A stretch of DNA of 64,000 nucleotides, from assembly GCA_003344405.1 (NCBI GenBank), contig NOWV01000128.1, forward strand, positions 62,001 to 126,000, in the 5' to 3' direction. A program made the position numbers and the translations under genes. Source of the stretch: Trichoplax sp. H2. Taxonomy: Eukaryota. Shown here piece by piece: positions 1 through 61,726 of this stretch. The notes beneath the pieces were generated by a model. The model was not told the origin of the DNA and ran no database searches. It saw only the letters and a program-made list of their open reading frames with translations. Within the stretch, counting starts at the first letter, position 1. Each line of letters opens with the position of its first letter.

Positions 1-3000
1 TGGAAATTGCATTACGAAGATACGACCATCTTCCAAAGCCTAATTTATTTTATGTTTACACAATTTACACAGTTATCATCGATGACAATAATTATCCAAG
101 GAAGCTCAATTATCACTACAATAACAGTAACATGATAAATAACTTTCTTACTTGATTTACAGTATTACCAAATGTTTGCGAATTCAATTTGGACTCAATT
201 GCATTCTTCCAACCAAAATCAGGATTTAAGAAAGGTTTTAACTCAGAAACCTTAGTACCATCGAAAATAGCATCTAAGTAGGACCAAATGTTTATTAAAA
301 AATTTAGTGCTGTAAAGAAATTGAGGCATAAATTTTTACTGCTATGGTTTTGTAACCTAACTTCGTATACTTGCATATCTGTGTTACGGTTTGAGCATTA
401 TTAAAAGGAAATATTAAGAGATATCCATGTATGAAAGATGTAGTACGGTATATCTTACAAGTATTATTCGCTCCGTGTGGCTCTATCAAGTATATTGTAC
501 AGGGTATATCAAAATGGAATTATTTATTTCTGTCTTACCTCTCTGACAAACAACTTTCCAGACAGGCTTAAAGCAGCTAGTATAAAACAAGCGCAAGCCA
601 TATCGCGAAAAACGAGCTGATAAGCACTTTCGGAAGTAGCTTGGTGTGTTGTAAGAATTTTCAACGGTAGTACCATCCAGCCACTTACCATATTTTGCTC
701 CCACATAGACACGTGAGTACCATGTTTTGAAGTACTTATTAACAAGTTTAGCTTCCGTAGGATCCGACAATATTGGTAAACGGCCATGATTACATTTGCA
801 CTTATATTGAGCAATATGCCAGTTTGTGTAATGATATGGACGAAAGGCTTTATAGCAATGTTTACCAATTAATTTCCAACCCTGTGGACAAGCTACATGT
901 ACATACAAGATTTAATATTTTGGTTGCTTAATTCAAGTTACCATTACCGGTAATTAAGATCTGATTAGCAGATCGGGTAATTTTGGAGAACGTGTTATTA
1001 TTAACAAATTACTCATAAATAATGTGATTAAAGCTACTTCAACTTACATGATTTGAAAACTCTGGATAGCTGCAAGGGATGTAATCCTGCCAAACGCTGC
1101 TCTGCAAAGACTTTATCATCCGAGAAATTATCAATGATTAGATCACTAGGCATCGTGAGTTGATTTCCTAGTGCCTAAAGTAATGAATTTACAAAGCATG
1201 AATAGGTTTAGCTAAGTTTGCTATCAGTAAAAATTTCTTGATTGATAGTATGCTCTTAAAATAATTACATAGTATATGATTATACTAAAATATAGCATCC
1301 TATCAAAGTCGCTAAATCCAATTAGCTGACTTATCCATTTTTACCAATAAATTTCGTGGTGCAGCTAATTACGATCACTGCATAAACTTATTTTAGCATG
1401 ATAAATTATAACTCAGTATTATAGCAGTATACCATTGTATGTAATTATGACTAAGTCTAATAGTATCAGAACTAATATCTATGTTGTTTCTTTATCTTTG
1501 CTTGCATTCAATTCACATTATATGATGCTTATGTACTTTATATTTCTGCATTGCATTTGTACTATCCTTCACATAGGTTGCACTCTACTGTTGATTAGTA
1601 TAACAGTAACTCACATTCCCAAATTACAGTTTGAGACTCAAAATTCTTTGAGTTTACCATTAATTCATTACAGCCTGTCATCAATTGATTTCAAGATTTC
1701 AATCTTAGCTGTATACTAACTTAGATGAATTTAATCAACAAAAAAATAAAATTAAAATTAAATTAATAGCCTGATCGACACTCGAGGGCTTAGCCACACC
1801 CGAGGTCATAATTCGAGGACAATTTAGTATGCTGATTATTTTGACGCATGCGTCCATTAAGCGGAAGGTATATTTCTTTTCACGATATAGTTCCGCAAAT
1901 TTTCCTTTCTAGATATTATTTGCCAGCCGGACTAGAGATTTCTCCGCCTTTACCACTCCCATCTATTATTTAAAACTAATATTGAATGCGATCTGCTTTT
2001 CTTTTTTTTTTGTCACTTAATGAACAGTAAAAAGGATACGTCCGCGCATTGCAATCGATCGCTTAAAAATTGCAGAGCTATAATCACCTGGAATGATTTC
2101 AGCTAATTATGGCACAGTTGCCATGTATAAGGAATAAAGTGATAGTATGCAATGTAGAACTGTACGTCTTAATAAAGTAACTATTGATTATAGCTCGTAT
2201 GATGAAATGGCTCACCTACCCATATGAGCTATGTAAGGTCGTAGCTGATAGCCATACTAAGTATTATTGCTATTTGAGCAATCTACTTTTAAGATTAATG
2301 ACTCCTATACATTATCTAGACGAGGTATAGAATTGACGGAAAGGAAAAATTGCTAAATAGTACTTAAATTAAATTCAGAAATTAAATTAATCAAATCATT
2401 CTTAGCAAAGTGTGCCAATATTTTTTTATTACTATATCATCATTCAAATTTTCTTGGTTATTGTACAATTCAGCTAATGACGAACGTCACTGATCGTAAC
2501 TAGTTGCTTAACCTATAATTTTTTTAGAAATATTTATTGAGTAGTGCTTATTTGCTGTTGCAAAGTATGGAGATGTCTTAAAAAGTCACGTAAAGAGTCA
2601 AAGGAGTAGGATGCAGCTGCCGTTAATATAGACAAAATTTCATTCCTCAAGGGATGTGTCCATTTCTGTGATGCTAAAGCTTATACCTATTCTAGATGTG
2701 CAAATTGGCAAAGACTGACTAAAAATACTATTAGTCATAGGTCGCTAATTGCTGTACAAATTTTTTGAGGGATCTTATTTTACATGGAGTGACTTTGCCC
2801 GTATGAGAATGCATGGATGCTAATAGTTTTTACTCTGTTAATATTTCATATCAACAAATACTTCCAATTATACTTTGCTATTAGCAATGCTGATATTGAT
2901 TTGTTGATACACGTAATTATTAACTAAGCATAATATGGCCTAGTGTTGGCTTAATATTTACTTTCATAAACATAAAATATCTCAAATGCTATGATAAGGG

Positions 3001-6000
3001 TGGAGGAAGTAAAAGGCGGATTCGGATATTGTCGGTGAAATTCTCAATTAAATACTTTGCACCTACTTCCCGTAGTACTGAGGCTTACATTCTTTTAGAG
3101 TACCATGTACCAAATTGAGTCTATATATATAATGCATGGTAGGAAGTGCAGTACACTCAATGAAGAAACTGTTAATGTTATACTTCATATAGTCAAGATG
3201 TTTGTATCATTATAATATCTTTACAATAAATAGTAAAATATCCTTTCGCGTTAAGTTTAACATAACTTAGATAAAACATTTGCTGCAAGTGAGGACTTGC
3301 AGTTATTGAAAGAAGACAATCAATGATTTATATAATTATTAATCTCATCTGAAATTCTGAGTCAGATACGCGAGTAAGATTAAATTTTAGAACGCTAACG
3401 TAATTATAAGCTAGTGCGTATATATATTTACGAAGAGAATTTTGTTAAGATCAAGGTTCAGTTCTATATCAAAAGCAATACAGTACATAAAGTGACTTAC
3501 CAACTGCGCATCGTAAAAGAAGGAAAATAACGCCTTGTAGTCTTCAATAACGGTAAAGTCTCGAAGAGAATTATTGCCAGTGGTAAGGAAAGTGGCCGCT
3601 AAATTAGCACTGTCCTGTAACGTGAATTGATACGAAAAAAACCATGGATTTTCCAATGGATCACTAAATGCAACACCGAATGCTGTGCCTGGATCGGCAT
3701 CCCATAGTGGTGGAATTAACACAGTTGGATCCCGCAGAGGATTATTAAAATCTGGTGTTTGACGTAATGCATATATAGTTTGACTTTGGGCTAGTTCAGT
3801 TTGACGATCCGCTAAACATGCTGCACTAACGAATTGTGGTATATCGACTGGACAAGTATGGTTACTACGAGGCAATCCAACCAATTTATGATCCTTTTTA
3901 GATTCGATAAGTAAATCAGCTGTTTATAATTGTAGAGATAAAGAGCTGTTATTAGATAAAAACACAGCAAATTGGTCTTTGATACGATATTAACCAATTC
4001 GGAGATTGTTAACATAATATATTGTTTAAGTACCGTGATGAGTATACAACGAATACGAATATCAACATATGATTAGCACAGCTCTATATATTCAATAGGT
4101 CTAGATAGGATAGAGCCATTTCTTCACTTTTTAATAGCATGATTGATTGTATAATCAGGGTCATTGCATAGTTACTGTAGTCACTTAAAATGAAACAATC
4201 AATTGGTTTTGCTATAGTCTGATACTATCTTAAACTTTATATTTATAAGGGTGAAACGTCAACATTGCATAGAGTTTACTTATCTTATTTTAAGCAAGCA
4301 AACGATATTTTAACGATACTGCCGAGTTAGCTCGACGATGGATAAAATGTAATAGACTTTGCAAATTTGATGTAATGATGTTTAGATAATTATCATACGC
4401 GCAAAGGAGAAGCCTTCTATTTTACTTCAATCAAAATAAACGCTTAAGAAATATAGCATAAAGCATATACATATGAATTTATATAAATGAATTTATATAT
4501 AATGGCCTGTAAAATCAATAATTATTAATATAAACACTGAAAAGGACAATAAAAATTAATTAAAGTAAACGCTGAAGTTTCTAACTGACCTATTGGTCTA
4601 TATTCTTGATCAGAAGAAGTCACATCACTTTTATTTTACAAGGATAATTTAAGAAATGAATTAGGTAACTAGCTCCAAGATCTATACATATAATAATTAA
4701 TCTGATAATTTGATAAATGGATTATTTAGTTAGGGACCAATCGTAGCATTGAGAATGAAATCGATTGATGATAACAAATAATTTATAGTCCATAATTTAT
4801 TATAAATCGTATGTAATCATTAAGAACTTCCGTATCGCGTATATTGTCTTTAATATTATTTTTACTGATTCTGTTTAGTGTTGCAATTGAGATAAATCAA
4901 GATTGTTACAAAATTATGGAGGAGTCATGATCAACGTGAATATTTTAAGTAATGCTATGATTAAACTACAAAATTATAGACAATAATCACTGCAATAAAT
5001 TATTCCATTGCCGAAGCCTTGTAAGGATATTTATAAATCAAGTACTATGATTGTATAGTTGGCCAATATGGCATTCTACTTACTATTATCTTGGCTTTTG
5101 AAGAATTGGCTGTTAAAGAAGCAATCTGAATAAATTCCAACGCATAAACATGTTTCTGGTAAGATGCAGAATTCACCTTTACCACAGCTCTGACGGCAAA
5201 CAGCTAAATAGATTGAAATTTTAGTTTTCTTAAATTTCTTGAATTAATACACATAAGGCGTTAAAATTTAGCGGTTTGGGAATTCTAAACTGTTAGCGAT
5301 GACAAAGACTACTACATGCGTAGTGATAATGGAATGCTTTAAATTATTGACTTTTATAATCGAGATTAAATCAACTATGAGTTTAATATTATCCAAATTT
5401 TTATGAATTGTTATAAGTGGCTTTTCTTTATACGATTAATCAGGTATAGAATGGACTGTAATGTACTGTACATTAAATGCTCTATCATAAAGCAATAAGG
5501 TCCGCACCAGCTGTGTTCATGGCATAATAATATAAAGGTTCAGTTTTCGATTAATTTAAATTTTCTACTAGATTAATTGCCAGTATGGTAACTGTTACAG
5601 AGTAAGTTAACTTTTCAAATAAGTTCACGTTTAATCCATGCTTCATATTCTATATAAGTCAAATAAATTATAGACAGCGCCATACAACTCCTTCACTATA
5701 GTTTTCTTGCACCGTTATCGTAACGTCTCTTATATTACTTTTTAATTTTACAACAACATTTTGCAACGGATCCCATAAATATTACATTGCAACTTAATAC
5801 TATAATGTCTGGCAATGCATATATAATACAGTAATTTACAGCAAATCGATCAACTACAACTATCCTGTATCATATAGTCGGTACCGGATAAAGTGCAATT
5901 ATGAGCTTGTGGCAATTTAAAGATCATAACGGTCACTTACAGAGTAAGATCATTACATGAGGTTAGCTAATTTATGAATAGTATCGTGTCTTTGAAAAAT

Positions 6001-6767
6001 TAACATATCGCATGCATTGCTATTCAAAGTGCATGAAATATCACTGCCTTGACATAATGACAAATATATTCTGTTTCTAAAACTACTTACGTGTAAAACA
6101 AGGATCTTCGCCATAAATTATTCCATTAGGCCTTGACCAACCCTCACAACATTGAGGATCTTTTTGATTTTTTATGCTTAAGTTCTTAATGATGCTATTT
6201 AGTCTTTGACCATCGCTGATTTAATTTTAAATGAGTAATTAAATAATCATAGGATACATAGGATCTGGCATAGTATCAAACTTAAAACACAGAAAAGATT
6301 TTTACCTCTCCACTTCGCAAACATTGTTATTGAGAAAGCCAGCGATGATACTTGCAATAAAAGGAACATAAATTATTACTTATTCCATATATCTAATCAA
6401 ACTGTCTATTTTTCTAAGGATATTTAAAAACTGATATAGAATTAGCAACAAGTTGTTCGTACATCATAAAATGCCCACAATTAAATAAATCAGCTGATCA
6501 CAATGATGTAACTAAATTTAACAACGTGATCTATGTAGAGATATAGATAGTGTGTTTCGTGTCTCTTTAGTTTTTAAGACGTGAAATGCAGTTTTTACTC
6601 GCTTTGGTTTAAATCTCCAATTATATCACTATAGAAATAGTATGAAATACTTTTTTTGCACCCTTCTTTTTGCTGTATAACTTCCCCTACCTTGTTAAAC
6701 GCTCGTATTGTGATGAGGGTAGTGGCAAGATGGCAAAGATGGCTATAAGAGCCAATACAGACTTCAT
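1..6767 (-). CDS. Secreted lipoxygenase paralog A: signal peptide, CCxGW/NIM-EGF head, LOX domain with inserted C-type lectin-like domain; 3' end runs off the window
   Basis: Frame-compatible GT-AG exons: 6767-6691 (MKSVLALIAIFAILPLPSSQYERLT), 6350-6306 (IIAGFLNNNVCEVE), 6215-6091 (QCCEGWSRPNGIIYGEDPCFT), 5203-5084 (PVCRQSCGKGEFCILPETCLCVGIY), 3919-3501 (TCPVDIPQ..RQTELAQSQTIY), 1174-1048 (DDKVFAEQRLAGLHPLQLSR, LOX motif), 892-539 (CTLD), 273-152, 39-1 (ALEDGRIFVMQFP). Near exon-for-exon homologous to the complete paralog at 14632-23449. Confidence 0.88.
539..892 (-). CDS. C-type lectin-like domain exon of LOX paralog A (354 nt, phase 1-1)
   Basis: CPQGWKLIGKHCY...A..KC...GRL...YVG...WLDGT...CL...SC....VVCQ pattern; tag acceptor at 893-894, gtaag donor at 537-538. 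Confidence 0.9.
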
Positions 6768-9700
6768 TTTGAGACAACGAAATGAATCTGATCGTTCACT
6801 GTGCAACCTAATCAATTCAACGTGAGAATTATTAAGAAGTATCAAGTTGTTTATCAGTTTTTGACAGCAATGATTAATCAGCCTTAATTATTTGTTAATA
6901 GTGCAATGGATTATGATGACAATGTGATTGACTTAAAACAATTAATAAACAATTATTCATCATTGTGCTCGACATCGCTTCAATGAACACTATGTTAATA
7001 TTGATTTAACTTTTCTACAATGCTATGAATTTTTCGATCTTATTTGATTCGCTGAAATTATTTTACTTGACTTTTTGTAACCAAAAGACCACTTTGAAGA
7101 AGATTTAGATGGTAAATCTTATAAGCATTAATAATATCAGGTTTAAATAATACTTTCTTAATAAATACGTAGCCTACAGGCAATACAGATGGCTAGACTG
7201 CTAGAATTTAAGATAGATAATTGAATCCATAATTTTTATATGCCTTACTTCAAGATTTCGTTTAATTATCATCACAATAAAATTATATAATAACATTTAC
7301 TATTATCAAAGATACATTTTCGGCTAGAGAATAAATAATGGAAAAGACTAGATTTAAGAAATTATTATTTATCAAAGTATGATTTACAGCCATTAAAAAT
7401 TATAAGCGCTAAAACATAACTACGTAAGATATGGTAATGCACATGGAGCATAAAAATTATAAAGAATTTTTGCCCCTATTCATAAAAATGAATATTTAAA
7501 TTAAGGGATCATTAAAGGATCCTTATATTGATAATTCATTATAATTAATTGGATTATTAGTTTTGTTTCACTAATTAATGAATGCTTTGCTAAATCACAA
7601 TTGTTACGGTAATAATGAAAAAACCGTTCGGGGGCAACTAAATGCGGCAGTTAATATTTAAAATAAGATGCATCGTCTATAAACATATTTTCGAAATTTG
7701 AAGGTTAGGATCCATTTATTTTCCTAAACTTAAAACAATAGAAACTATGATATTAAGTCACTAGGAGTGATTCTCTTGGAGCAAGCCAATGTGCTATCGT
7801 TTCCAAAATACTTCTGATAGTAAAAATACCTTAGTACGACTTTTTACAAACGATTCTAGAGGTATAAATTGGGGTATACTTTGGAGTGGGTATAGTCTGG
7901 GCTGTTACACAGGTTCTCATTTTTTAGCATCCTTTTATAATTGGTGATATTATAGTCATATCATGGTTTTATATTTTAGCTAAATATTTACAGCGGTTAA
8001 TTGAAGCTATAAAAGTATAGCTAAAGTAAAATTGTTGCAAGAATACAGATAATTTTATTAATTTAATCTAGCTTTCATTTTATGATCTATTCTTAGTGTA
8101 TGGTACTGTTTTGCATAAACGTTGTATAATGGAATAGTATCATAATAATTAGTATCACTACTACGTAGTTACTAATAAAGGAAACATTAGAGTCGTCTAA
8201 TGTTTTAGAGGAGAGCGAAATCATTGTACAGTAGATTATAGTTGACTTCTATTACCCCAAAATACTACCATATTAGTTGCGCTGCCAACAATTTCTAATA
8301 AATATTCAAACTTAACAAGATTTATTCATTTGCTAGATTTTTCGTTCTAATCAATAATTTTCAGAGCTCGATCAATTTAGCTAGCGCTAGAACCAGTTAT
8401 GTAGATAAATAAACGTGATTGGTGCTTTTAAGACTCTTGAGATAATATTTTGTAATAGATATCCTAAGATGATCTTATTCTATAATAGCCTAGTAGTGAC
8501 TAAGTCATGGTGTTATGATATATGAGCAGTATTAACTAAATATCATTCTGATACCATTACCTACTATATTTGCTTTTAAATATTAGTGGGCTAATAATTA
8601 TTTTATCAGGTAATTCATTCTGATAGAAAGACATTAAAGAGATTTCGTATAATGCTATTTATACAATGTAAAATTATAGATTATTGCATGTAACGATAGA
8701 AATAGATCTTAAAACGCAAAGCTTAATGGCATGAAGTTGGTTGATAATTTATTCCCAAATCTAATAAACTTTCATTCAATCCGTCATACCTTTACTTTAA
8801 TCACACTCTATTTTCTAGTTTTAATCACTCTGAATCATTTTTTAAAGCCTCCTTTTATTCCTTTATGCTTATGCTGAAATACATCTGAAGATATTGTTAC
8901 TGCTGAAATACTTTTTCTGTCCACGTAAAACGAAAGGCAGTAATTTTAATTAAACAATATCACAGATATCAATCTAATCTACGAGACGCTATAAAAATAT
9001 GAAGCTGTGAAGCTTACTCAAAATATGCTTTGACATCGAAGTAATATAACGCTAATTCTACATCTATCAATACATCTATCGATCATCACAAAACTTGACT
9101 AAACTACATTGCTTTTCCTAAAAGTTCCAATAATAGCTTATTTTTGAGTTTGTAGCGCCAAAATTTTCATCATTTATTTCTAAGAGAAAAAATTAAAAAG
9201 AAGTATCAATGCGTTGTATACAATAAAATATTTGCTTTTACCATGTTGTACTAGGACTTTCGTTAGCTAATTTAAAGGTTAAAGGTTAATATTTCATAAT
9301 GCTTGTAGTATTTTCATAATGATTTCAGATACTGATATGGAAAGACTGGTAAATTTCTTTTTTACATACCTTTCCCTATAATACGTATGATTAGCTCATT
9401 TTGGCGATGATAGTAAATAAAGCATAAAATTAAAGAATTATTGTATTTTATTCTTATATAGCTCTGATTCGATAAATGATATCATAGTGAATACAGATAA
9501 ATAATGAGCCTAGGATGGGTTTTGTAATTTTTAATTGAAGTATTGAGGGCAAAAAGTCAATATATCTAATGTTGACTAAGAGATATATGGCTACTAATTG
9601 TTTCTACGAGACAATGAAAATATTTCTTAAGTGCAAAGCTACATAAAATTGTCTGCGTATTCTGCCTTTAGTATTATATATTCAATATGAATGTGCTATG

Positions 9701-10640
9701 GGAATTGACCTTGGCCTCTAAACGATAAGATCAAGGACAATATTATAAAATTGTGAACGACAAACTGATATGCTATGTACGGTACCGAGATCTCGGAACA
9801 GTAGGAGTTAATTAGGTGCTTGCTTTGCTAGCCCCCATCAGGCAATGCTCGCTTGTTTTGTTCTTAATTCTATGACGGGATATTGACTAGATTGCTAGAA
9901 GAATTCTTTAATTTAATAGTCACTGAAAGTAGTTTGTTTACATAAAATTCAATAAATATTCTTGAGAGATTAAATGTTATACCAGGAGATCCTACGTTAA
10001 TGATTAATTAATTAATTAATTAATTATGAAAAAAATAAAGTTGTTGCTAAGTGTCACTAACCAGCTTCGTGACAAAGATAACGTAAAACAAATCTCTAAA
10101 TTACTCTAGTCTCCAGGATTCAGTATCCCTAAACTACCTCACAAGAATTTAGACGCCTTTGCTTCTACGTTAAAACAACTATATAAGTCTTCTTTTATGC
10201 AACTATCTGCCGAGCTTAACCCTTCGGCAGCAGCTATCATGTATGAGTCATAACGGTTCATGAAATTTAGCTCATATTGGATAGCTAAATTAATACAGAA
10301 ATTATTCATAATTTTGGACATGTACCGAACGATTCTAGATAATTAGACTACAGTATGTCCACACGCAGAATTATTTATAGTATCACCTATAATTGAATAT
10401 CTTCAGGATATTCATCATAAGCGTTACAAGACATAACGCTATAATCAATTACTATTGGTTACCTTATAAGAACTTTTACTACAATGCAGCATAATTTACT
10501 GTAACAAATAATAACTACCGCAGTTCTTACTGTAAGTCATCATTAGTTATCTCCATGTATGAATGTTAAACACTAAATTTAGTCATATACTTTTCACAGT
10601 GGCTCGTACCGTAACACTAAGATATTATGTTTGAACCATG

Positions 10641-11189
10641 TGTCACAATTTTACTTCTGCGACAAGGTAACGTACAGTAAAAGTCTATAAGTAGCTACTG
10701 ACTTAAACGCCCTTCTACCTAACTTTAAACACACACAGCAAAATACTGTAAAGATAAAACTTTTATTAGCAAAGACACATCTACAACTTTTTACTACCCC
10801 ACTCAACTCAAATGTTCCCGTTTATATAGGAAAAGTCTAATTTGTAAACAACAGTATTATTATTATACCTTACTAGGAGAAACATCTCGAAATGAGATGT
10901 TCGTTACATAGCTTTTCTATCAGTAAACATTTTGTATTTCTTACTCTTACTTAATCTTAATCTAAGCACGTAGGTTGTCTAATTCAACTATCATCAACTG
11001 GAACTTGAATCATCTTACTGCTATTTATCACACAATAACAATCAATAACAAATATGTAATGAACTATCACAAACAACATCCACGTTAAGGCATTACTTAT
11101 CTTACCTAGAACTACAAATATGGATATTCTCCGTACTAGCTACTACTGTACTTATTAAACTATCCCAATGACAAGGCAACACCGTAACA
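10641..11189 (-). mobile_element. Solo LTR (549 bp) with 5-bp target-site duplication
   Basis: Termini TGTCAC...GTAACA; CCATG on both sides (10636-10640 and 11190-11194); minus strand has TATATAAA (~10821-10828) followed ~60 nt later by AATAAA; homologous inverted copy at ~57285-57567. Confidence 0.8.
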
Positions 11190-14100: not shown

Positions 14101-14631
14101 GAAAGAAACTCAATAAATATGAGCGTATCTGTTATAATATTAAGTACGGTAATTTTGCGTAATATATTAGAATTAGATCGATATGATGTTAATAATAAAT
14201 CCGTGTCTGGAGCAAAAAGGATGCCATACGGCAATTTAATAATTATTCTGTAATATCATAGTGAACTGGTAGATTACATCGCAAACGTAGAGCTATAATG
14301 CATAATACACTATCATTCTAAATTAGATAAGTCTATTTTAACCTTATATGATTTGATAATTTATGCTTAACTTAGATAGTTCCTACATTTTAATGAAGTA
14401 AATTAGCGAAGGTAGATAGTTAGTCTTATTACAAGAGTGGAAGCTTGTAGTTTTTTCTGAAATATCGCGGTCTATATTCTGTTACTTATTCATAAAGTAA
14501 ATAAGATGTAGCTTTAACTGATATGTGAATATAGCAACAATGCTACTGCTGATTTTAAATATGCCCGTACTATCGATGTTACAATGTAAAATTATGTTAT
14601 ATTGCTGTTAGAATCCATATCTGAAATGGTC

Positions 14632-17600
14632 TTAACTACTAATGCTATTTGGTACATTTTTTGGATGAAGGTACTTATAGCTCAAATGGCCATTGGCAAC
14701 ATTGGCGTTATTTCTAGCCACTAAATTAGCTTGAATGGTATCAATGCGAGCCTTGAATTCGAAGACCAACTCTTCAGCATCGCTATCTGCCATGCTAGCA
14801 GCATAATCGAACAAACTATCGAAATGTAATGAAGCCAAGTTGAAGCCAACTTCTACATGAGTCTAGGATAGAAGAAATAAATATTAGAGATAAATTTATT
14901 ATTGCGAAATATTAGTACTGGAAAGCTATTGAGGTAAAGTAAATGATGACCCTATAGTACTTTAGTTGTGGTTAATTATTATTATCTTGTTCAAGAATGT
15001 AGAGTGTTACTAATTATAATTGTAATTATCCTGAAAAATTTAGTATCAAACCTTGTACTATTGTTTACAGTTAAACTCATAAAATTTGAAATTTTGCCAA
15101 TATTGTTTGTCTACTAACGTCGCAGATTCTAATGATAAATGCTTATTGGATAATTATACTTACTAAAGATTGGGTCTTGGTTGGGAATTTTATTGGGTCA
15201 AATCCTGTTACACCGTCCACGTTATAAATTTTACCAGGCATATTAGGTAGAAAAGTGCCATATTCAATGACTGGAAAATTAACTGCTGCATGTTGGCAAG
15301 AAGAAGACCAAACGAATTTATGTAATACATCGATGACTTGAGCTTTTGTAGTGAAAGATTGAGGGAAGTCGCGTAACTACATATTTAAGCGAGACGATAC
15401 CAGTTTAAGTAAGTAAGTAATGATAACGAATTATAGTTTATTTGTAGTCTCTGAATACTATTAACATCAGTTCATATATTGCAATAAAGTTTAGCTTTAA
15501 AATACATAGCTCTAGGTGACTCAAAATGACACTGGATACAGTTATTACTCACTTTGCCTTTGCCTGAGTCTGGAGTACCTGTAGCACCTAAAGCAATTTC
15601 GTTTGCCCAACGTTGCATTTCATGATCGGCAACTACAGTTGCATCATCTACATAATATCTGAGAAAATTAATTTGTAAAATTAGAATCGAAGGTTATTGT
15701 ATTTGTTCCTCCAGGTCAGTTGTCTATTAAACTTACAGGTTAACGTAATCTCGTATAAAATCACCAATAGCTTTATATAATTCTAGCCCATCATCTCGGT
15801 AAGGAAAGAAAGGAAGTGCTTGCTTATCCAATAATCCAGATTTCTAACTCATGATAAATATAATATATAGCGACTTAAATTAGTATATACTACAAAACGT
15901 TGTACTCAATTAATGGTAGACTGTTCAGTGATTCGATAATACAAATTTTTATATCATTATAAACTAGATATTGCTGCTTAAGTGCCCAGAAGGTGATGCT
16001 TTTAACCAAAGCTAGCAGAATCGTTGTCTTACTAAGCAATTACTACAAGCAGCTTCAGTTATAATCCTATTTCTTAATATAACAGTTAGGTCAATTTTTT
16101 TTCGGTAGTGAACGATAAGTACTTCAATATTTTGCGTTTAATATATTGTAGCACAAAATTTATTTAACTCGTTAAATACTAGTTAAGCTCAAACCTTTAA
16201 TCGATAATTAGGGTCGTGATTATTAAATGACCAGGTATTAAATCCATTATTTATAACGTCATTTTGTCCCTTGAATCCAACAGTCAGGATTCTGTCCACT
16301 CTACCACCGAGTGGTATTAAGCTTAATTCGCCAACTTTATTCGTAGTCAATGTTCCTCTACAATGTTGGCGAATAAGTTGGCCCACAGGATGCGTTATTG
16401 GTATATTTCGTTTACCTGATACACATAAGGGATCGTTGACTAGATGAGTATGCAATAAATGTTCTAATAATTCAGCGGTAGTAAAAGCGGACATTTGAAC
16501 TAAAATTTTAGCAATGGTCCAGTTATCGCCATCATCTGGTGTATATACTGGCGAATTTTGAGTACTATTGATCTGAATAGCAACAGGCAAAAATTCTCCA
16601 TGGTTGACGTCCGGATTTGAAACAAAGATTGCAATTGGCGACATTAAAGTCATCATAGTTCTACCATCATTTGGTATTTCTTCAAAATCGGGGCTGGTTC
16701 TTATTCCTCTAAGCTCAGGAAATTCTGATACGTATACCCTACCATCTTGCACAGCCTTAAAAGTATAAAAAATAGCAAATTATATTTATGCGCAAGCATA
16801 CGATTGAGATTTAGATAGAACTGATAGGGAAATACAGTAATCTTTATTTACTTACATCAACAAAGGTATTACTATAATAAGGCGAATTAGAAGCCAGTTT
16901 GGATCGAATTGCTTTCTTCCACTTGAATGATGAGTTTAGAACGGATTTTAAGGTTGAGATCTTAACGCCATATAAATTAGCAGCTACAGATGATACATAA
17001 AAATATTAATAGAATCCAATCATGCTATCAAAAATCATTGAGAAATAGCATGATACCAAAATAGCCCTTATTTTTATATCAAGTAGTCACCTTTTTGACA
17101 TAATATTTTTCTCAAAGGCCAGAAACAGAAACTGTATCTTAATTTTAAGCCAGATTGAGTAAATCCAGCTGTTAAACATCGACGGAATGCACTAGGTTGA
17201 TTGCTGGCACCCACAACTGGAGTGCCATCGGGCCATGTACCGTTACCGCCGTCAACATAAACGGGGACAGAAGCAAATTTATATCGCTTATTTACTTTAG
17301 CGGCTTCCTGTGAATCCGATAGATCTGCTAGATGGCTGATATGGCATTCGCAGACATGTTTTGCAGCATTAAAATTGCTGTAAGGGTATCCACGGAACAT
17401 TCTATAGCAATTCTCTCCAATTAACGTCCATCCTCGTGGACAAGCTAAAGAAGAACAGACATTGCTTTAAAATTGATCGTGCTCAAGGCTAACTGAAAAT
17501 AATTGAAAGGCTAATATTATTGTAGTAAGGCCCAAACTATACTTTAAATGAAAATTCTACTAACTACCAATACTTTGGTTAATGTAAAGAATGTTTTTGG

Positions 17601-20600
17601 TTATATATCAGGCAGTATACCGAATCTATACAGTCACCTAAAGAAGATCAAGAAAGCATGATACTTACGCTTGCCGATAACGCGCTTCACGGGGAATGGA
17701 TTTAATCCGGCAATTTGCTGCTCTGCAAATACACGATCATCTTGCCACATATCAATAATTAAATCATTGATATTAGTTGGGACATTTCCTTGGTCCTACG
17801 TATGTGAGAAAAGCATTACAAGAATTGATTCTCAATCGATAGAAAACATTACAATCATTGTCTATTATCAAGTGAGAATGTCGTAAAGGTTCCCCATTTT
17901 AATACTGATATTAGAGATTACTTCTATACACTTACCACATGAAACATATAGAAGAAGAAAAATAATTCTCGCCAATCTGAAATACTAGAAAATTCCCGGA
18001 CAGAATTATTTCCTAGACTTAAGTAAGTCTGGACTAATTGTCCGTTGGTTCCCAATATAAAAAAGTATTGATTTAACCAAGGTGCTTCAAACGGGTCACT
18101 GGCTCCAACACCAAAAGCCGTTGGTGGATCGATGTCCCATAATGGAGTAAGTAATACATCTAAATCACGACCAGAGTCATTAAAATTAGGCGTAGTACGG
18201 ATTTTATAAATAACACGATTAGTAGCTAATTCTGTTTGGCGCTGGATGGTACAGTTGGGGCTAGCATTTTGCGGCAATGCTACTGGACAGGTTTGGCTAG
18301 TCGATCTTTTGCTATGTTGTTCAGCATCGCGATCGAATAAATTATTGTCAAAATTTTCTTCACTTCCAACGTCGATATCCGCTGCCCAACGTGTGAATTG
18401 ATCAAAAGGCGATCCTAAAGTTTCAATAAATTCAAGGAAAATTTTGCAGAATGAAAAGTTGATGCAATCCGTCTTGAATTATGATACTCTCTATCTGATC
18501 TAAAAATCATGATCTCTGCATCTATATCCGTTCGTTATAGTAAATGAAATATGACTGATATCGCCGCAATACTTAAATTAACAATTACTGACTTTTGTAC
18601 CTAACGTAGTCTAAATTTAGATAAGATGAATTATGGAAGCATCATACTAGAAAATAGTAGAGATGGAATATGAATTAAGAGTGCAAGTTACTTTTTTTTC
18701 CATTCGTCGCGTTATAAGTTGTTGATTGACATCCTCTATAGCCCAAGACGCATAAGCACTTATCTGGCTTATAACAAGATTCCTTATTGCCACAGGGTAC
18801 CTTGCAAGTTGCTAATTATAGAATAAATGAATCAATAAATGACTAATGAATTGAGCACATTATTTTAGAATCATTAAGCAAGTAAATTTCAAGCTATTGA
18901 GATTTTTGATCGCAAAACTGAGACTAGAAATAGTCCTACGCAAACAAAAATGGTGGAAAGGATTGAATCATGAGTGTTAAAAGTTGAGGTAGATTATATT
19001 ACAGTTACGCTTAATTAGACGAAATTACACATAAATCATCTATTTTATCATAAATACCATAGCTTACAGAAAAAAAGGAGATCGCAATCAATACGATACA
19101 GAAATTTAACGCTGCACAAGATTGTCTATTTTAAGGCTACGCTTTTGATTGGTAATTGAATTTTAGAAGTACAAAAATTTTGCACTATTGAGACTGAAAT
19201 TCACTGCAGAGTTTAGTCATCTATTTTCTTCCGGATTATTGTACAAAGTGTGAGCACCGCATACTATTGCACTTACGAATAAAGCAAGGTGCATTTCCTT
19301 CTCGATTACCGCCGGCCCTTGTCCAGCCATCGCAGCATCGAAATTTTGTAGCCCTAGCAATATAGTCTTCCTCATCAAAGAATCGGTCGCTGATGCTATG
19401 GTAAGCTCGCCTAAAATAAATTTTCAAAGTATGACATTTATATTACTTTCTATTATTAATTCAATGCCAATCAATATCACGAATTTCGCGTATTATTTCC
19501 CACTCCACTAAAAGTAATTATAAATACTTGGCAAACTGTAAGCTTAAATAAATCTCGATATCAGGATTAAGCTCAGCCTATATGTACTATAGAATGGAAG
19601 TTTAAACTCTGAGATATTATCGAAGGTATTCAATACTAAATCATATCTGTGTCATGATAAAGGTAAGAATAAGTTGGCCAATTTTTCACAGGATCCTATT
19701 ACAACATACGATTTGACTTTTGCTAAGTGTAATATTATAATTAGCATGTTACTCACACTGTAACGCTGTAATATTTATTTCTTCTTAGTCTAAACTGTAA
19801 TTATTGTAGTGGTTATCTACCTAAAACTGAACTTACTGCTTGAGCTCATTTCAGTAAATGATCACTTTTGTTTCACTAATGATCAATACTACCACAGTTA
19901 TTACCGCATTTATTGCTACCGCTTATCGATGTCTAATCTTAATTACACCGGAAGCTGTCCAGTTTACTACTGTCATTTAAACTAGATACATCTAACTTTG
20001 CAAAATCTGCGATCCAATTTACTGATTAACCTGCCAATAGAATTTATTTTAATCATGATTGATTATATGCTAGAATAAGATATTTTACAATATCATCAGT
20101 ACTATACCACTGTGCAATCAACTCTTGCGGCAATTTTAGCCCCTTTTCTATACAGATAAAAGTAAATAATTTGGAATGGTGGTTTACCAGTTTGACGCCC
20201 ATGTTAATAAATTTAGTTTAGCCAGCATACAATGGAATTATTTACATGGATAGTGTAATACGTTAAATTTTAGGTAATGCATGCACATATTTAGTGAATT
20301 TTATGGCATTTACCGGTATTAATGCATGTTGTAAACTAATTACGATCGATAATAATCGATACTAGTGCGGTATAATATCCGCATATGCTAGTTATAATTA
20401 GAATTATCCATTAAATTGTTTTCAAATTTTAATAATACTAAGATCAATAACAGTAAATTATAATTATAAACTTTTATACGAAGAAAATCGAGAAGAACAT
20501 TAAAGCTAACATCAAAATGGTTGATAGCTTCAATTAAAAACTTACTTGGCAGTATAAGAGCAGACATTGACATTGACGGAACCACTACTATTAAGACAAT

Positions 20601-23449
20601 GAATAAATAGATGTTATTATTTAACATTTCCATCATCTATAAATAATAACTTTGTCTTCTATTTGTAATAGATCAATTTTAATTGATAAACTATAAATGA
20701 AAAATTATTCTTTGCGTCACCATTGAATTATTAAAATAGGCTATTTTACGATGAAGTTGAGAAAAACAGTCGCTTATAAAAGCCTAACAAATCTGATAAC
20801 AGTCACCAATTTTACAAATATACAGTATTCACAAAAAGATCGTTTGTAATTAACATTCAATATCATTATCTATTGCTAATGTGGAGCATTAGTAATCAAA
20901 TAGATAAATTCTACAGTATTGCTGTTATTTTGAACGGTGGTAATTACTTATTCCGGAAAGCAGAAATTATTTGGCCGATGTAACTAGTTATTTGCAAGTA
21001 TAAGTGGCGTTTTAGCTATTATTACTGAATAAATCCAGAATTTTCTTCTATGATGTGTAAATTAATTGGGCCAATGTAACAAGTTATTTGAAAATATTTA
21101 CTGTGATTTCACTCTTATGATAATATACTCGTAGGATCACTATTTTTCTTCCATGACAGGTAAATTAATTGGCCAATTGAACTGGTTATTATCCGCAATC
21201 CATATTACTTTTCAAATTATCGTGTTTTCCATTTTATTTTGCTGATACGTCCTTAATTAGCGGTTTTAAAATTTCAGCTGTATCATGACGCTGCAGCAAT
21301 TAAGTGAAAAATAATACACGGATTTAAGCTATGCTTTAATAATTTTAACCACTTTCTACAGTTGGCTTTAGTAGTAGTTTTAGAGTTCATTCCGCGTACT
21401 TGACGACTGATCTTGATTTGATTCATTACAATTTAATGTGTTCTAGAATAATACTTATGTATCATTTACTACAAATTGATGATAGTTATTATTTCGAAGT
21501 ATTGTTTGAAATAAATTATGAATAATGATCTTGTATCATTTAAAGTAATTGGATGATAACTGTTGTTCCAAATTGTTTTTTGAACGCGTTATACAATAAT
21601 AATTATGAATTATTGAAATCATAAATGCAATGACTGTTGTTTCCAAATATTGTTTATGCACATTAGGGAAAAATGAAGATAACGGTATAGACAATCATAA
21701 CATTCTATGCATAATCTAAATTTAGTTATAATTATTCTCGCATCGCGGTAAATGATGGAGTAAGTTAAAAATAATCTTAATAGATTAATATGAATCGACA
21801 ATATATGGAAATATTATGTTATGAATAAATAATGTTAATTTGTTTCCATGATTTATAAAGGTGTTGTGATTTCAGCTAATTATAGTATTATTGTGTTTTG
21901 AAAATGTAATATCGATATGTAGTAATCACTATGTAGTAGAGAATAATCGTTTATGCTTAATAAAGTAATTGTGGATGATAGGGGTTAAAACCATTCATTA
22001 AAGAAATTAAAGTAATTCTAGATGACAGGGTTAAAACCTTTCATTACAGAAAATTTTATTGTTATAACTTATGCTCAATGTAATTTCAATTTAAAATAAT
22101 GTACTGGTAATTCGATGATATCTAGAAATACCTTGGTGGGACGTAATAAATCCAAATCGATAGCACCGATTCAAGCTAAGGATAGCAAAAATCTCTGAAC
22201 TAATAAATTAAGTAAACTTTTCGACTATGTCTAATTTGCACAAAATAATTTGCATTAAAAGTTTTAATTGCGATCGATAGATAAAACATTTATCTTTCGA
22301 TTTCTCTTCTCTGGTCGGAGTTATTACTTTGAGCTTTTGATCATTACATAAGATCAATTAGTTCACAATTAGAATGTGATATTTATTATCATTAATTACT
22401 CATAAGAATTGGTTTTAATCACAAATGATCTCAATTAAAAAAAATTTACTGGTCTATATTAGTCCAGTTTGACATGATTGTCATTTGCAAAAAAGTTATC
22501 TAGTAGTGATTTAAAATCTTATTTATTGCCTTCAGACTCAAGTTGGCTTTGATCAAGTACGATACCTATCTAATCAGACTTGATATAATCTGGCTTTTTA
22601 GACATTAAATGATATTAATTGGATGCATTTTGCTATCATTTCCTTATCTGGTATGAAATATCCAATTACAACTTCTACTATATTTAGTGGGCAAATAAAA
22701 AAAGGGTAGTTCCGTATGCTATCCATATCAATACCTAGCTATAACTTCTACCTTTTTAGCTATCAATAAAGCTATTTATATTCGATTTATTCACTGGCCT
22801 AATAAAAAATAGGATAATTCTGTATGCTATCCTTGACAGTAGCTAAATATAAATTAGATGATTATTATATAATCGAGAGGCCAATTATACGCTGCTTTGA
22901 TTTCATTTTGAAGACTACCTCATTTCTGTTTTATTGTCTGCTTTTACCAACAAAATTATCTTTTAGCCATAATATAGTCATCTTTCAATAACAGTTACTG
23001 TTATTTGGAACTGTGTTAACTTTAAAATTACCTTTTGTGTAAAAATTGGTTAGTTAAGAAGGTATAAAAATAGGATAGCATCTTAAATGCTATCGCTAGT
23101 TGTTATCATCGTGATAATTTCTAATCAAACTTTCATCCAGATTCGAGTTCTTTTTATTTGCTGTTATTTTCCTACTAATTTCTGCTTTCGTTATAATATT
23201 AAGGTGCAATTTTAAAATAAACTAGACCACAATTTTGCTTTGGTGTTAACCACAGCTTCGTGTATTAAGTGATTAGACTAAAGACGCTTCTAAAATGGGG
23301 CTATTAACCTGGCTACAACAAATAAGAACAATCATACTAATATAACTAGATCGATCTTTCTAAGTAGACAATTTGATACTGTATAGTAGACTTTACCTTT
23401 GGGAAGCAGTGGCTAAGGCTACTAAGAGTAGAAAGTATCCAAGATTCAT
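14632..23449 (-). CDS. Secreted lipoxygenase paralog B, complete (~870 aa): signal peptide, CCxGW/NIM-EGF head, acidic spacer, LOX domain with inserted C-type lectin-like domain
   Basis: Exons 23449-23397 (MNLGYFLLLVALATASQ), 19410-19277 (RCCDGW..PCFI), 18811-18692 (PTCKVPCGNKESCYKPDKCLCVLGY), 18414-17936, 17795-17669 (WQDDRVFAEQQIAGLNP), 17444-17091 (CTLD), 16983-16856, 16755-16195 (PVAIQ, WTIAK, HLLHTHL, HPV), 15843-15737 (PYRDDG), 15658-15553, 15376-15164 (QHAAVNF), 14862-14632 (YLHPKNVPNSISS*). All phases are compatible (2613 nt). His/His/His/Asn iron ligands are present. Confidence 0.92.
17091..17444 (-). CDS. C-type lectin-like domain exon of LOX paralog B (354 nt, phase 1-1)
   Basis: CPRGWTLIGENCY...AAKHVC...HLA...WPDGT...CL...FC....ILCQ; same length and phase as paralog A. 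Confidence 0.9.
20940..21195. repeat. Degenerate ~100-bp tandem repeat (3 copies) in intron 1 of LOX B
   Basis: Recurring ttggcc(g/a)a(t)tg(t)aac..gttatt at ~20971, ~21067 and ~21169. Confidence 0.45.
21961..22055. repeat. ~47-bp tandem duplication
   Basis: taaagtaatt..gatga.agggttaaaacc.ttcatta.agaaa occurs twice. Confidence 0.7.
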
Positions 23450-23554
23450 GTTATCCGTTATTTTCTCGCTGAGTGCTTGCTATGATGACCAATCACCCGG
23501 TCGTTGTGGAACAACGCAGAGGATGTTTATGAAAATGACAGTGGTTAGATCCTG

Positions 23555-23562
23555 TATTTATA
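23555..23562 (-). promoter_or_regulatory. Candidate TATA box of LOX paralog B
   Basis: TATAAATA on the minus strand ~105 nt upstream of the ATG at 23449; weak evidence in AT-rich DNA. Confidence 0.45.
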
Positions 23563-45495: not shown

Positions 45496-45834
45496 GTGCA
45501 CATTGGGCATTCACAAGTCACAACATGATGGAGAATTGGACGATCAGAGCGGCTTGCTGAATTGAAATCTTACATCTGCAATAACAAATTAATATTGGGC
45601 CAAAAATCTTCCGTAGTGGGAGGCGCTTGCAATTGCCTAAGCCTTTCTTACAAGCCTGCTACCTTGAACGTGTCCCACTGGACCTGAACCCGCAACGATC
45701 ATTCGTGCAACCGTTGCCACAGTAACATTCAGCGAATCTACTGTACAGATTGCAAATTCATTCATACTGAACATTGATTGTAATTAATTACTGGCCAAGT
45801 GGACAGAGAGGATTTAGCAGAGGTGCTGTGACAA

Positions 45835-60093: not shown

Positions 60094-60168
60094 TTTATTT
60101 GCTGAAATTAATCTCAAAAATTCGGTTAATTAAAACAGCCATATATGTGTTGTCTCATGTTTATCTAC

Positions 60169-61706: not shown

Positions 61707-61726
61707 NNNNNNNNNNNNNNNNNNNN
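61707..61726. other. Assembly gap (20 N)
   Basis: Run of n characters. Confidence 1.

Follow-up and report, generated by a model that had tools for sequence, protein, structure and literature searches.

A cysteine-rich coding segment N-terminal to a lipoxygenase (LOX) in Trichoplax sp. H2 raises the question of what such a head contributes to this enzyme, and whether it took the place of a PLAT domain. Animal LOX studied so far have been portrayed as intracellular, with an N-terminal PLAT domain as their means of reaching membranes. Possession of this N-terminal domain is attributed to the LOX of higher eukaryotes in the abstract of PMC7436259. The initial annotation of the locus proposed that a Nimrod/Draper-like module had replaced PLAT as a recognition or oligomerisation head.

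The window, i.e. the whole 64-kb stretch analyzed, contains two LOX genes, A and B, both on the minus strand, which are tandem paralogues coding for mosaic lipoxygenases. Gene B corresponds to a public 884-aa Trichoplax sp. H2 protein (P0001; 100% identity with the gene B exon-5 query), which is reproduced exactly by joining exons defined by RNA-contig joints and two upstream exons fitted to P0001. The contigs stem from four runs in two studies; ten joints recur in all four runs and one (16983|17091) in three, with GT..AG on the minus strand. Exon 1 (coding part 23397..23449; signal-peptide-like MNLGYFLLLVALATASQ) and exon 2 (20546..20587; SSGSVNVNVCSYTAK, with the NVC cysteine) were located by tblastn of P0001, their boundaries being chosen to yield P0001 on joining; a loose RNA end at 19410 in all four runs, read by eye, translates to the exon 2 peptide. 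Contigs of all four runs then join exon 3 (19277..19410; CCDGW and ...APCFI; joint 18811|19277), exon 4 (18692..18811; the EGF-like/relaxed-NIM unit, 120 nt, phase 1-1 in the joined model) and exon 5 (17936..18414; an acidic linker containing KR-S and, after it, TCPVALPQ...RQTELA, where the catalytic domain starts) with GT..AG ends, thereby connecting head exons directly to LOX exons. RNA joints also define exon 6 (17669..17795; DDRVFAEQQIAGLNP, with a weak Pfam Lipoxygenase match) and exon 7 (17091..17444; a C-type lectin-like domain inserted after QQIAGLNPFPVKRVIGK), and, together with the fit to P0001, LOX exons 8 (16856..16983), 10 (15737..15843), 11 (15553..15658), 12 (15164..15376; QHAAVNF, with iron ligands H766 and N770) and 13 (14632..14862; the C-terminus ...PNSISS and stop codon), the last two being additionally aligned to 11R-LOX. 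Exon 9 (16195..16755) encodes the LOX core, including the iron-binding H578 and H583, and was identified by a Pfam Lipoxygenase match to its ORF (E 1.3e-13) and by alignment to 11R-LOX.

Gene A extends past the window start, its contigs continuing 3' for over 1200 letters more. RNA joints define exon 9 (1..39, cut by the window start; 39|152), exon 8 (152..273; LOX), exon 7 (539..892; the C-type lectin-like domain, within the catalytic domain; 273|539 and 892|1048 in four of four runs) and exon 6 (1048..1174; LOX motif DDKVFAEQRLAGLHP; four of four runs). Exon 5 (3501..3919; a short linker, then the catalytic-domain start TCPVDIPQ...RQTELA) is defined by the joint 1174|3501 and contig pieces covering 3500-3919, and is 52% identical to gene B across 118 residues. 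Exon 1 and the head joints of this gene come from our own splice model and RNA bin depth, the RNA joints listed for gene A reaching from exon 5 onward. Exon 4 (5084..5203; the EGF-like/relaxed-NIM unit, phase 1-1) is the sole AG..GT candidate holding the whole cysteine-rich unit; its 120 nt equal the length of gene B exon 4, and the bin depth fits about 120 nt. The acceptor of exon 3 (6091..6215; CCEGW and the cysteine of ...PCFT) could alternatively lie at 6203 or 6194, but 6215 is favored because the depth in bin 6004-6670 would fit about 170 nt for exons 2 and 3. Exon 2 (6306..6350; ...FLNNNVCEVE, with the first head cysteine, that of NVC) has an AG acceptor, a GT donor and an open frame in the joined model, and parallels gene B exon 2. 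The coding part of exon 1 (6691..6767), with the start codon and a hydrophobic signal-peptide-like segment (MKSVLALIAIFAILPLPSSQ...), has a GT donor, and its phase is compatible with exon 2; at the depth of the main contig, the RNA in bin 6671-7337 would correspond to about 120 nt. In the 2669-letter gene A contig 409 letters remain 5' of exon 5, which exons 2-4 (290) and exon 1 (about 119) would account for.

The span originally flagged, 5084-6350, thus consists of gene A exons 2-4, its limits coinciding with the donor end of exon 4 and the acceptor end of exon 2, and the corresponding part of gene B, 18692-19410, is bounded by RNA-supported exon ends. The peptides quoted for it are all present on the minus strand: NNVC in the ORF at 6302-6379, CCEGW in 6083-6220 and VCRQSCGKGEFCILPETCLCVGIY in 5076-5243 for gene A, and CCDGW in 19239-19442 and CKVPCGNKESCYKPDKCLCVLGY in 18678-18815 for gene B.

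Sequence profile analysis of P0001 recovered the Pfam Lipoxygenase domain (PF00305) with E 2.5e-39 (135.8 bits; cutoff 23.6). H578, H583, H766 and N770 lie in nearly invariant alignment columns and align with the metal ligands of 11R-LOX (His-x4-His, His-x3-Asn). The chain ends in Ser where LOX usually have Ile, with ...PNSISS aligning to the LOX C-terminus; the C-terminal residues listed for members of its clade (see below) are T, S, V or I. The structural model has pLDDT mostly above 90 in residues 157-884, beginning at about residue 157, and structure comparison of this part recovered LOX catalytic domains only. Residues 157-884 superimpose on 4qwt_B with Z 40.9 and rmsd 2.3 (538 aligned, chain range 111-693), and residues 158-884 on the whole chain (1-569) of the PLAT-less CspLOX2, 5med_B, with Z 39.8 and rmsd 2.2, placing model residue 157 at about residue 111 of a PLAT-bearing LOX and at residue 1 of CspLOX2. 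LPQ...RQTEL, which the initial annotation had taken for the helix that normally follows PLAT, lies in the next exon (3501-3919 and 17936-18414) and matches the opening residues of LOX catalytic domains. The catalytic domain of P0001 is complete and starts exactly where that of PLAT-bearing LOX starts.

No PLAT/LH2 domain (PF01477) was detected by Pfam in P0001 at E up to 10, and PLAT-encoding exons in the large introns, which would have overturned the earlier claim of a missing PLAT, did not appear: none of 74 minus-strand intron and upstream ORFs of at least 28 aa (3815-8168 and 18418-23946) matched, while, as a positive control, the scan of 83 relatives recovered the same domain in 6. Pfam PLAT is found, for example, in the relatives P0046 and P0110, of about 1,050-1,080 aa. 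In gene B there is no room for it, since the RNA joints run from the EGF exon straight to exon 5, where the catalytic domain begins. The best PDB sequence match of P0001, 11R-LOX (3VF1; E 9.9e-50, with agreeing aligned iron ligands), and the coral 8R-LOX/AOS-LOX (4QWT, 3DY5) share its catalytic fold (Z 40.9 and 38.6). The automatic name of the public record, 'allene oxide synthase-lipoxygenase', derives from these enzymes and is misleading for P0001, as it has neither the N-terminal PLAT/C2-like domain nor the catalase-like AOS partner of the coral LOX.

Catalytic domains of this compass are known elsewhere. That of the Cyanothece mini-lipoxygenase CspLOX2 (PDB 5MED; sequence E 1.7e-47) starts at LPQ with nothing ahead, and many PLAT-less bacterial LOX start M..SLPQ. 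Unlike P0001, CspLOX2 and its bacterial kin have no head, lectin insert or cysteine bracket, and among the rows seen none has a signal-peptide-like start. The Pseudomonas aeruginosa LOX (4G32/5IR4; Z 38-39 against the P0001 model) and the fungal manganese LOX (5FNO; Z 33) are exported enzymes described as lacking a PLAT beta-sandwich; they differ in the absence of EGF, EMI and lectin modules and, in the fungal case, also in the metal used.

In the phylogeny, genes A and B fall into a clade devoid of PLAT to which cnidarians and a sponge also belong. P0001 branches basally within this group of 14 rows, all without PLAT; the tree stems from a quick search and has several long branches, and the branch joining P0001 to the cnidarians has an SH-aLRT of only 85. 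A branch with support of 99 separates off the six rows that have PLAT. The clade comprises anthozoans, Hydra, Sanderia, Sycon and T. adhaerens; its members have an N-terminus resembling a signal peptide and two cysteines that flank the LPQ start, and they carry extracellular modules of various kinds. The closest sequences are cnidarian LOX, such as Nematostella vectensis XP_048584002.1 (39% identity over the catalytic part), which along with Exaiptasia XP_020901452.1 and Montipora XP_068716666.1 resembles P0001 in its lack of PLAT, its signal-peptide-like N-terminus, the two cysteines on either side of the LPQ start, and the presence of an extracellular module, placed either N-terminally or in the same loop. 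These modules differ between members: the N. vectensis protein has an EMI head, the Exaiptasia protein an EGF head, another relative (P0029) TSP1 and FN2 modules, and the Montipora protein an FN2 module inserted in the very loop that holds the Trichoplax lectin-like domain. The Nematostella relative P0003 matches Pfam EMI with E 0.0038 (18.4 bits, under the cutoff of 25). The lectin insert, or CCxGW and EGF together, occurs in none of the 90 aligned rows. Our search found no experimental study of the cnidarian secreted-type paralogues, whose records are automatic annotations. No scanned member of this cnidarian, placozoan and sponge clade contains PLAT, with or without a head. Hence no PLAT swap is needed, and the idea that the head replaced PLAT is wrong as history.

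The second module of these enzymes, absent from the initial annotation, is a lectin-like domain encoded by its own exon of 354 nt in both genes, which, like the EGF exon, is of phase 1-1. It is inserted inside the catalytic domain, in the loop after the QxxAGxNP...RV segment. Pfam Lectin_C (PF00059) matches it with E 0.0003 in gene A (21.9 bits against a cutoff of 22.6) and E 0.011 in gene B. A search of the gene B domain against the PDB recovered 33 sequences with E no higher than 1. Almost all of them are C-type lectin-like, led by NKG2-D (9.9e-5) and KLRG1 (5.7e-4) over residues 1-112 of 117. The pLDDT of this domain in the full model is below 50. C-type lectins bind calcium and sugar through an EPN or QPD motif plus WND. 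Neither EPN/QPD nor WND is visible in the lectin-like domains of genes A and B, and glycan binding is therefore not implied.

The head has the same layout in both genes, namely a signal-peptide-like, hydrophobic N-terminus, the NVC...CCxGW piece and, 12 residues after CCDGW or CCEGW (with W for Y), one six-cysteine EGF-like unit with the spacing C-x3-C-x5-C-x5-C-x-C-x6-C. All ten head cysteines are kept between A and B, with identities of 17/50 in the EMI-like part and 13/29 in the EGF part, falling to 9/34 in the linker that follows, the least conserved part; exon sizes and phases match. In all six frames of the window CCxG[WY] occurs twice, both times in these heads (mean 0.18, maximum 1, in 100 mononucleotide shuffles), and the within-exon pattern C-x3-C-x5-C-x2-P-x2-C-x-C-x3-Y likewise occurs twice, only in the two heads (0.0 in 100 shuffles); the head motifs thus exceed chance. 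We conclude that the head really exists, is transcribed, and joins a cysteine-rich module of CCxGW and an EGF-like unit to a lipoxygenase.

Its affinities are less sharply defined, and the folds proposed for the head and the lectin-like domain are putative assignments from sequence patterns and weak E-values. Seven cysteines, with CCxG[WY] at the C-terminal end, define the EMI domain. By inspection of the sequence, the head retains NVC, CC and the next C..P.C of this pattern and misses two central cysteines, which marks the NVC...CCxGW...C piece as an apparently reduced EMI-like element. The profile searches suggested earlier gave a divided answer: Pfam found neither EMI nor EGF in the 96-aa head at E up to 10, nor EMI (PF07546) in the single exon ORFs, but EGF_PEAR1L, a family named for the platelet receptor PEAR1, was the only match of the gene B exon-4 ORF, at E 0.041, below the Pfam cutoff. 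The top Atlas cluster for the head carries EMI (97%) and EGF_PEAR1L (98%) at a score of 0.86, where values below 0.9 are a lead only. A phmmer search against the PDB did recover an EGF-type structure by sequence, though not that of a Nimrod or Draper protein: the best match was the N-terminal CCPGW-EGF piece of fibrillin-1 (E 0.002), followed by the WIF-1 EGF (E 0.22). In the fibrillin-1 piece (PDB 2M74, the 'FUN domain') CCxGW, C-x2-P-x-C and the following EGF cysteines are in register with the head; however, fibrillin-1 is a matrix fiber protein and not an enzyme, and its NVC-to-CC distance is only a few residues, as against 27-31 in A and B. The pLDDT of the head is below 50 in the full model and averages 34.3 for the head alone.

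These observations bear on the possibility that the head is a true Nimrod/Draper-type EMI+NIM module, homologous to phagocytosis receptors, that took the place of PLAT and recognizes bacteria, algae or phosphatidylserine. As in Nimrod, Draper and MEGF10/PEAR1 heads, CCxG[WY] stands directly ahead of a six-cysteine CxPxC-type unit. PEAR1 is a relative of MEGF10 and Draper, and the EGF_PEAR1L match and the Atlas lead also speak for this reading. The nearest Nematostella LOX has an EMI match at the same place and begins with the same NVCSY letters. The Nematostella head differs in its longer EMI with the central cysteines present and in lacking the EGF unit. Both genes have CCxGW ahead of a unit fitting a relaxed NIM pattern (CxxPxC, a third gap of five residues, no retained NG, and IY in A), with two one-residue insertions relative to the strict form. 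The strict consensus CxPxCxxxCxNGxCxxPxxCxCxxGY, quoted with its N-terminal CCxGY rule in a section of PMC4073527, matches neither gene. Moreover, Nimrod and Draper proteins have many repeats on a transmembrane receptor body, whereas A and B have a single unit, fused to an enzyme, and no transmembrane segment. Together with the failure of Pfam EMI, the missing central cysteines, the fibrillin-1 match and the clade-wide lack of PLAT, even in head-less members, this makes such a descent unlikely.

Still less probable is that head and linker form a removable pro-region, cut at a basic site before the catalytic domain to leave a mini-LOX with a lectin insert. Gene B reads ...HSKR-STSQTCPV at the relevant position; P0041, a fragment 57% identical to gene B and, we would guess, probably from another placozoan, reads ...GKRSKR-STTATCPV, interpretable as R-x-K-R; and gene A has ...LPR-SNHTCPV at equal distance from the cysteine. 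The linker, besides being poorly conserved, is modeled as disordered. However, furin requires R-x-K/R-R, which is complete only in the P0041 fragment, gene A having a single Arg, and the conservation of ten out of ten head cysteines argues for a folded functional module and not a spacer. That the head exons are chance ORFs or belong to another gene, the public model being chimeric, can practically be dismissed: gene B exons 1 and 2 do lie 4 and 1.1 kb upstream, beyond the RNA-covered stretch, and one low-depth contig ends oddly at 6440, but the GT..AG joints linking gene B exons 3-4-5 in four of four runs contradict it for this gene, the paralogues share one architecture, the 5' letters of the gene A contig would fit exons 1-4, and the 884-aa T. 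adhaerens model is 99% identical to P0001.

Taken as a whole, the evidence is best explained, we think rather probably, by a secreted mosaic LOX in which head and lectin modules were added to a PLAT-less enzyme for surface docking. The A and B enzymes are predicted to be secreted, and the modules would have joined an enzyme that lacked PLAT beforehand, with exon shuffling as the probable route. Their likeliest job might be to dock the enzyme on an extracellular surface, such as matrix, cell coat, or the surface of prey or microbes, and their function is probably extracellular targeting. Docking could allow the enzyme to reach its lipid substrate, the equivalent job being done in cytosolic LOX by membrane binding of PLAT. 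The combination of a PLAT-less LOX with a cysteine-rich head and a lectin-type module was not found in the literature searched.

Trichoplax digests algae outside its body. A more speculative, and on present evidence doubtful, extension would see in these proteins an old extracellular LOX family of non-bilaterian placozoans, cnidarians and a sponge, aimed at foreign or matrix surfaces by exchangeable modules of matrix, immune or lectin type, the Trichoplax pair being a lectin-guided, membrane-peroxidising enzyme of digestion or defense and the EMI-LOX fusion predating the placozoan-cnidarian split. The Trichoplax and Nematostella proteins have the NVCSY start in common.

Thus, in conclusion, a whole clade of early-branching animal LOX is without PLAT, looks secreted and is repeatedly decorated with extracellular modules, two different ones, the lectin in Trichoplax and FN2 in a coral, occupying one and the same catalytic-domain loop. 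If these enzymes are active outside the cell, they would represent an extracellular arm of oxylipin chemistry in these animals, which could serve digestion, defense, or interactions with matrix or symbionts. The A/B locus would, in addition, illustrate cleanly how phase 1-1 exons are shuffled into the core of an enzyme.

The protein encoded by gene B, one of the two tandem minus-strand lipoxygenase (LOX) paralogues A and B, is already public under automatic names. A query with the open reading frame (ORF) at 17927-18478 returned a single protein with 100% identity, the 884-residue P0001, listed by NCBI as 'Allene oxide synthase-lipoxygenase protein [Trichoplax sp. H2]'. Its 90% cluster also contains Trichoplax adhaerens TRIADDRAFT_60389, identical at 882 of 884 positions. 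The window is AT-rich (about 30% G+C) with its coding sequence split into exons, and transcript structure was examined by mapping RNA contigs from four runs of two studies, three of the runs recorded as RNA-Seq, on positions 1-20000; stretches free of RNA, such as 7338-10005, carry no evidential weight. In gene B, RNA joints with GT..AG on the minus strand connect all exons from 19277-19410 down to 14632-14862, and these exons together with the upstream 23397-23449 and 20546-20587 translate letter for letter to P0001. The limits 19410 and 18692 proposed from sequence are thereby seen to be exon ends.

Gene A extends past the window start, and RNA joints are seen at 39|152, 273|539, 892|1048 and 1174|3501. 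Its exons 1 to 4 (minus strand 6691-6767, 6306-6350, 6091-6215 and 5084-5203) were modelled from splice sites, phase and likeness to gene B, the acceptor of exon 3 possibly lying at 6203 or 6194; the frame is open throughout the joined model, and by these limits the span 5084-6350, flagged in the initial annotation, comprises exons 2 to 4. A 2669-letter RNA contig has 3500-3919 at its positions 1841-2260 and 409 letters remaining, which equals 290 for exons 2 to 4 plus about 119 for exon 1 and hence supports the model. Bin depth divided by the depth of the main contig gives about 120, 170 and 120 covered letters in the bins of exon 4, exons 2 and 3, and exon 1, respectively. The joints of the gene A head are thus deduced from splice sites, exon phase, the length of this contig and the bin depths.

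Several further transcript features were recorded around these genes. The stretch FFFFYMFHV at the end of exon 5 was considered as a read-through error and rejected, as an RNA joint supports it and gene A keeps LFSFFY. A low-depth contig present in each of the four runs stops at 6440, a position within the first intron of gene A that has no AG acceptor; its further 255 letters match nothing in positions 1-20000, and it could come from an alternative 5' exon, from another transcript or from a difference between strains. Contigs also cover 10006-11339, between the two genes, with depths of up to about 200 in one of the runs. None of the ORFs in this stretch matches a Pfam family, and it may hold a small gene that has escaped annotation or give rise to a non-coding transcript. 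Directly 3' of the gene B stop lie unspliced contigs of about 1.1-1.3 kb at 13295-14617, of lower depth than the coding exons; they probably stem from a separate transcript or from a long 3' UTR.

The N-terminal part of gene B begins with a signal-peptide-like helix (residues 2-17 in the predicted model), followed by a cysteine-rich head in which NVC is separated by 31 residues from CCDGW and this by 12 residues from a unit of the form C-x2-P-x-C-x3-C-x5-C-x2-P-x2-C-x-C-x2-GY-x2-C. Between this unit and the catalytic domain lies a linker of about 55 residues with HSKR-STSQT at its end. The layout is shared by gene A, whose linker is shorter, and the peptides originally quoted for the two loci were recovered on the minus strand at both. 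The CCxG[WY] motif occurs twice in the six frames of the window, both times at the head loci, against 0.18 expected from shuffles; similarly, the within-exon cysteine pattern occurs twice, only at these loci, against 0.0 in shuffles. All ten head cysteines are common to A and B, while identity amounts to 17/50 in the NVC...CCxGW part, 13/29 in the EGF unit and 9/34 in the linker, as compared with 81/160 in the first catalytic part and 55/119 in the lectin domain.

The initial annotation had read this head as a Nimrod/Draper-type recognition module, quoting a NIM consensus and a CCxGY rule in agreement with the part of PMC4073527 in which they are given. In favor of this alternative, CCxGW is present and a relaxed NIM consensus with two single-residue insertions fits both genes; however, a pattern test found the strict consensus in neither gene A nor gene B, and a Pfam search with the 96-residue head recovered no family, EMI and EGF included, at E-values up to 10. 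The only Pfam match to a part of the head is EGF_PEAR1L (E = 0.041) in the exon-4 ORF of gene B. Sequence comparison with solved structures recovered the N-terminal piece of fibrillin-1 (2m74, E = 0.002), in which CCxGW and the cysteines that follow align without a shift, and further an EGF repeat of WIF-1 (E = 0.22). A protein-atlas search placed an EMI+EGF_PEAR1L cluster first (score 0.86), which serves as a lead only. A word-index protein search with the head at E-values up to 10 (three candidates) yielded P0001 alone and no head relatives, as did searches with exon 5 and the whole protein in yielding only P0001. In the full-length AlphaFold model residues 17-156 have pLDDT below 50, and the head predicted alone has a mean pLDDT of 34.3. 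The EMI domain, as defined, includes two central cysteines. Our reading, from the cysteine pattern, is that the A and B heads may be a reduced EMI-like piece without these two cysteines, followed by one CxPxC-type EGF-like unit, and would belong, at the class level only, with the modules fronting EMI, Nimrod and Draper proteins and fibrillin.

The catalytic domain is that of a lipoxygenase, P0001 matching Pfam Lipoxygenase with E = 2.5e-39 and, among solved structures, best by sequence the coral 11R-LOX (9.9e-50), the Cyanothece CspLOX2 (1.7e-47) and the coral 8R-LOX. The metal ligands are intact: H578, H583, H766 and N770 show almost no variation across an alignment of 90 rows and line up with the ligand positions of 11R-LOX. 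P0001 terminates in PNSISS, and the last residue of its clade relatives is T, S, V or I. With this alignment as input, AlphaFold gave a model of high confidence between about residue 157 and the C-terminus, except for residues 338-435 (pLDDT below 50); the matches listed by a structure search with the full model are all lipoxygenases, which bears on the catalytic domain and not on the head. Residues 157-884 superpose on residues 111-693 of the 8R-LOX chain (Z 40.9, rmsd 2.3, 538 aligned) and on the entire chain 1-569 of the PLAT-less CspLOX2 (Z 39.8). These superpositions put the exon with TCPV(A/D)(L/I)PQ...RQTEL at the first residues of the catalytic domain, in agreement with the initial annotation, which saw in it the helix that normally follows PLAT. 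PLAT itself was detected by Pfam neither in P0001 nor in 74 minus-strand ORFs of at least 28 residues taken from intron and upstream sequence of A and B, PLAT-encoding exons in the large introns having been envisaged as a possible refutation; as 6 of 83 scanned relatives score in the same scan, it is able to detect the domain. Moreover, RNA joints in gene B lead directly from the EGF exon into the first catalytic exon, and the architecture is thus PLAT-less.

The catalytic domain is itself interrupted by a C-type lectin-like domain, encoded by exon 7 in both genes (gene B, minus strand 17091-17444; gene A, minus strand 539-892; 354 nt each) and spliced into both mRNAs as seen from RNA joints. 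With gene B exon 7, 33 PDB sequences were found at E-values up to 1, nearly all of them C-type lectin-like, the best being NKG2-D (9.9e-5); Pfam Lectin_C matches with E = 0.0003 in gene A and 0.011 in gene B. In nearly all HMMER matches of P0001 the domain splits the LOX alignment in two. In the 90-row alignment a long insert in this loop is confined to P0001 (136 residues) and Montipora P0007 (75 residues, FN2), as against 17-18 residues in the closest animal relatives and a median of 8 over all rows. The EGF and lectin exons are both of phase 1-1, a phase associated with shuffled extracellular modules. Neither an EPN/QPD nor a WND motif was seen on reading the lectin domain sequence, so that sugar binding by it is not implied.

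A full HMMER scan with P0001 as query, covering 1.84 billion representatives, recovered 2620 proteins at E-values up to 0.001. Names taken for 19 of the listed matches include Exaiptasia, Nematostella, Acropora, Stylophora, Montipora, Hydra, Sanderia and the sponge Sycon. A hydrophobic N-terminal start is present in 10 of the 11 full-length relatives that were read, the exception being the Sanderia model P0020, and a cysteine pair brackets the LPQ-type start in all 11. Several relatives carry other extracellular modules by Pfam, namely EGF in Exaiptasia P0002, TSP1 and FN2 in P0029, and FN2 within the catalytic domain of Montipora P0007, while many further matches start M..SLPQ with nothing ahead; the cluster of P0008 is named Nitrospira. 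In Nematostella P0003, residues 30-99 match EMI below the cutoff (E = 0.0038), and this match starts ENVCSY where the Trichoplax counterpart has VNVCSY. PLAT was found by Pfam in none of the scanned members of this animal group. In a tree from a quick search (51 chosen rows of 151, 558 columns) P0001 is basal in a 14-row animal group (SH-aLRT 85), a position that is not firm because several rows are long-branched; the six PLAT-bearing rows cluster with one another and are separated from this group by a branch with support 99. The head thus occupies the position that PLAT has in other LOX proteins, but since the scanned members of the animal group lack PLAT and the tree sets the PLAT rows apart, the head was most likely added to an enzyme already devoid of it. 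The combination of EMI-like, EGF and lectin modules with a LOX is real and unusual. Literature searches of open-access articles found nothing on Trichoplax LOX or EMI/EGF/lectin-LOX fusions, nor on TRIADDRAFT_60389, B3S833, RDD39626 or XP_002116455.

Elsewhere in the window, exon-like ORFs on the minus strand at 34144-40834 suggest an HD-PTP/PTPN23-like gene, with BRO1 domain pieces at 39690-40834 and a protein-tyrosine-phosphatase piece at 34144-34458 (E = 4e-19); no Pfam family matches the 536-residue open frame at 35097-36704. The region 44465-45560 is richer in G+C (about 42%), and several reading frames on both strands stay open through it, yielding YSTV/QYTV-like repetitive translations; it probably represents a tandem repeat or one of low complexity. 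On the plus strand, two ORFs at 47491-48081 match Glycosyltransferase 61 (E = 7.6e-5 and 3e-4). The minus strand at about 49890-60044 appears to carry a large gene of many exons, read as being of APAF-1/NB-ARC type with an extended C-terminal region; it has an APAF-1 helical domain match at 55533-56012 (E = 6.8e-10) and an ORF with a GxGKT P-loop at 58938-59318. The near-identical blocks 60133-61144 and 61868-63031, about 1.9 kb apart and almost alike in their ORF translations on both strands, are a recent tandem duplication; a 20-N gap at 61707-61726 adjoins them.

In the linker, a basic site 4-5 residues before the first cysteine of the catalytic domain is a possible convertase cut, which would release the head. 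That the head is a pro-region removed there is an improbable alternative, suggested by the KR-S of gene B (P0001 residues 152-158) and the RSKR-S of the related fragment P0041, but with only R-S in gene A, just before TCPVDIPQ. In the preferred reading, that of targeting, the LOX would be exported from the cell, and the disulfide-rich head and the lectin domain would fold outside it. PLAT gives cytosolic LOX enzymes access to membranes. In a manner reminiscent of this, targeting by the head and lectin domain might allow the catalytic domain to reach lipid at a surface outside the cell.
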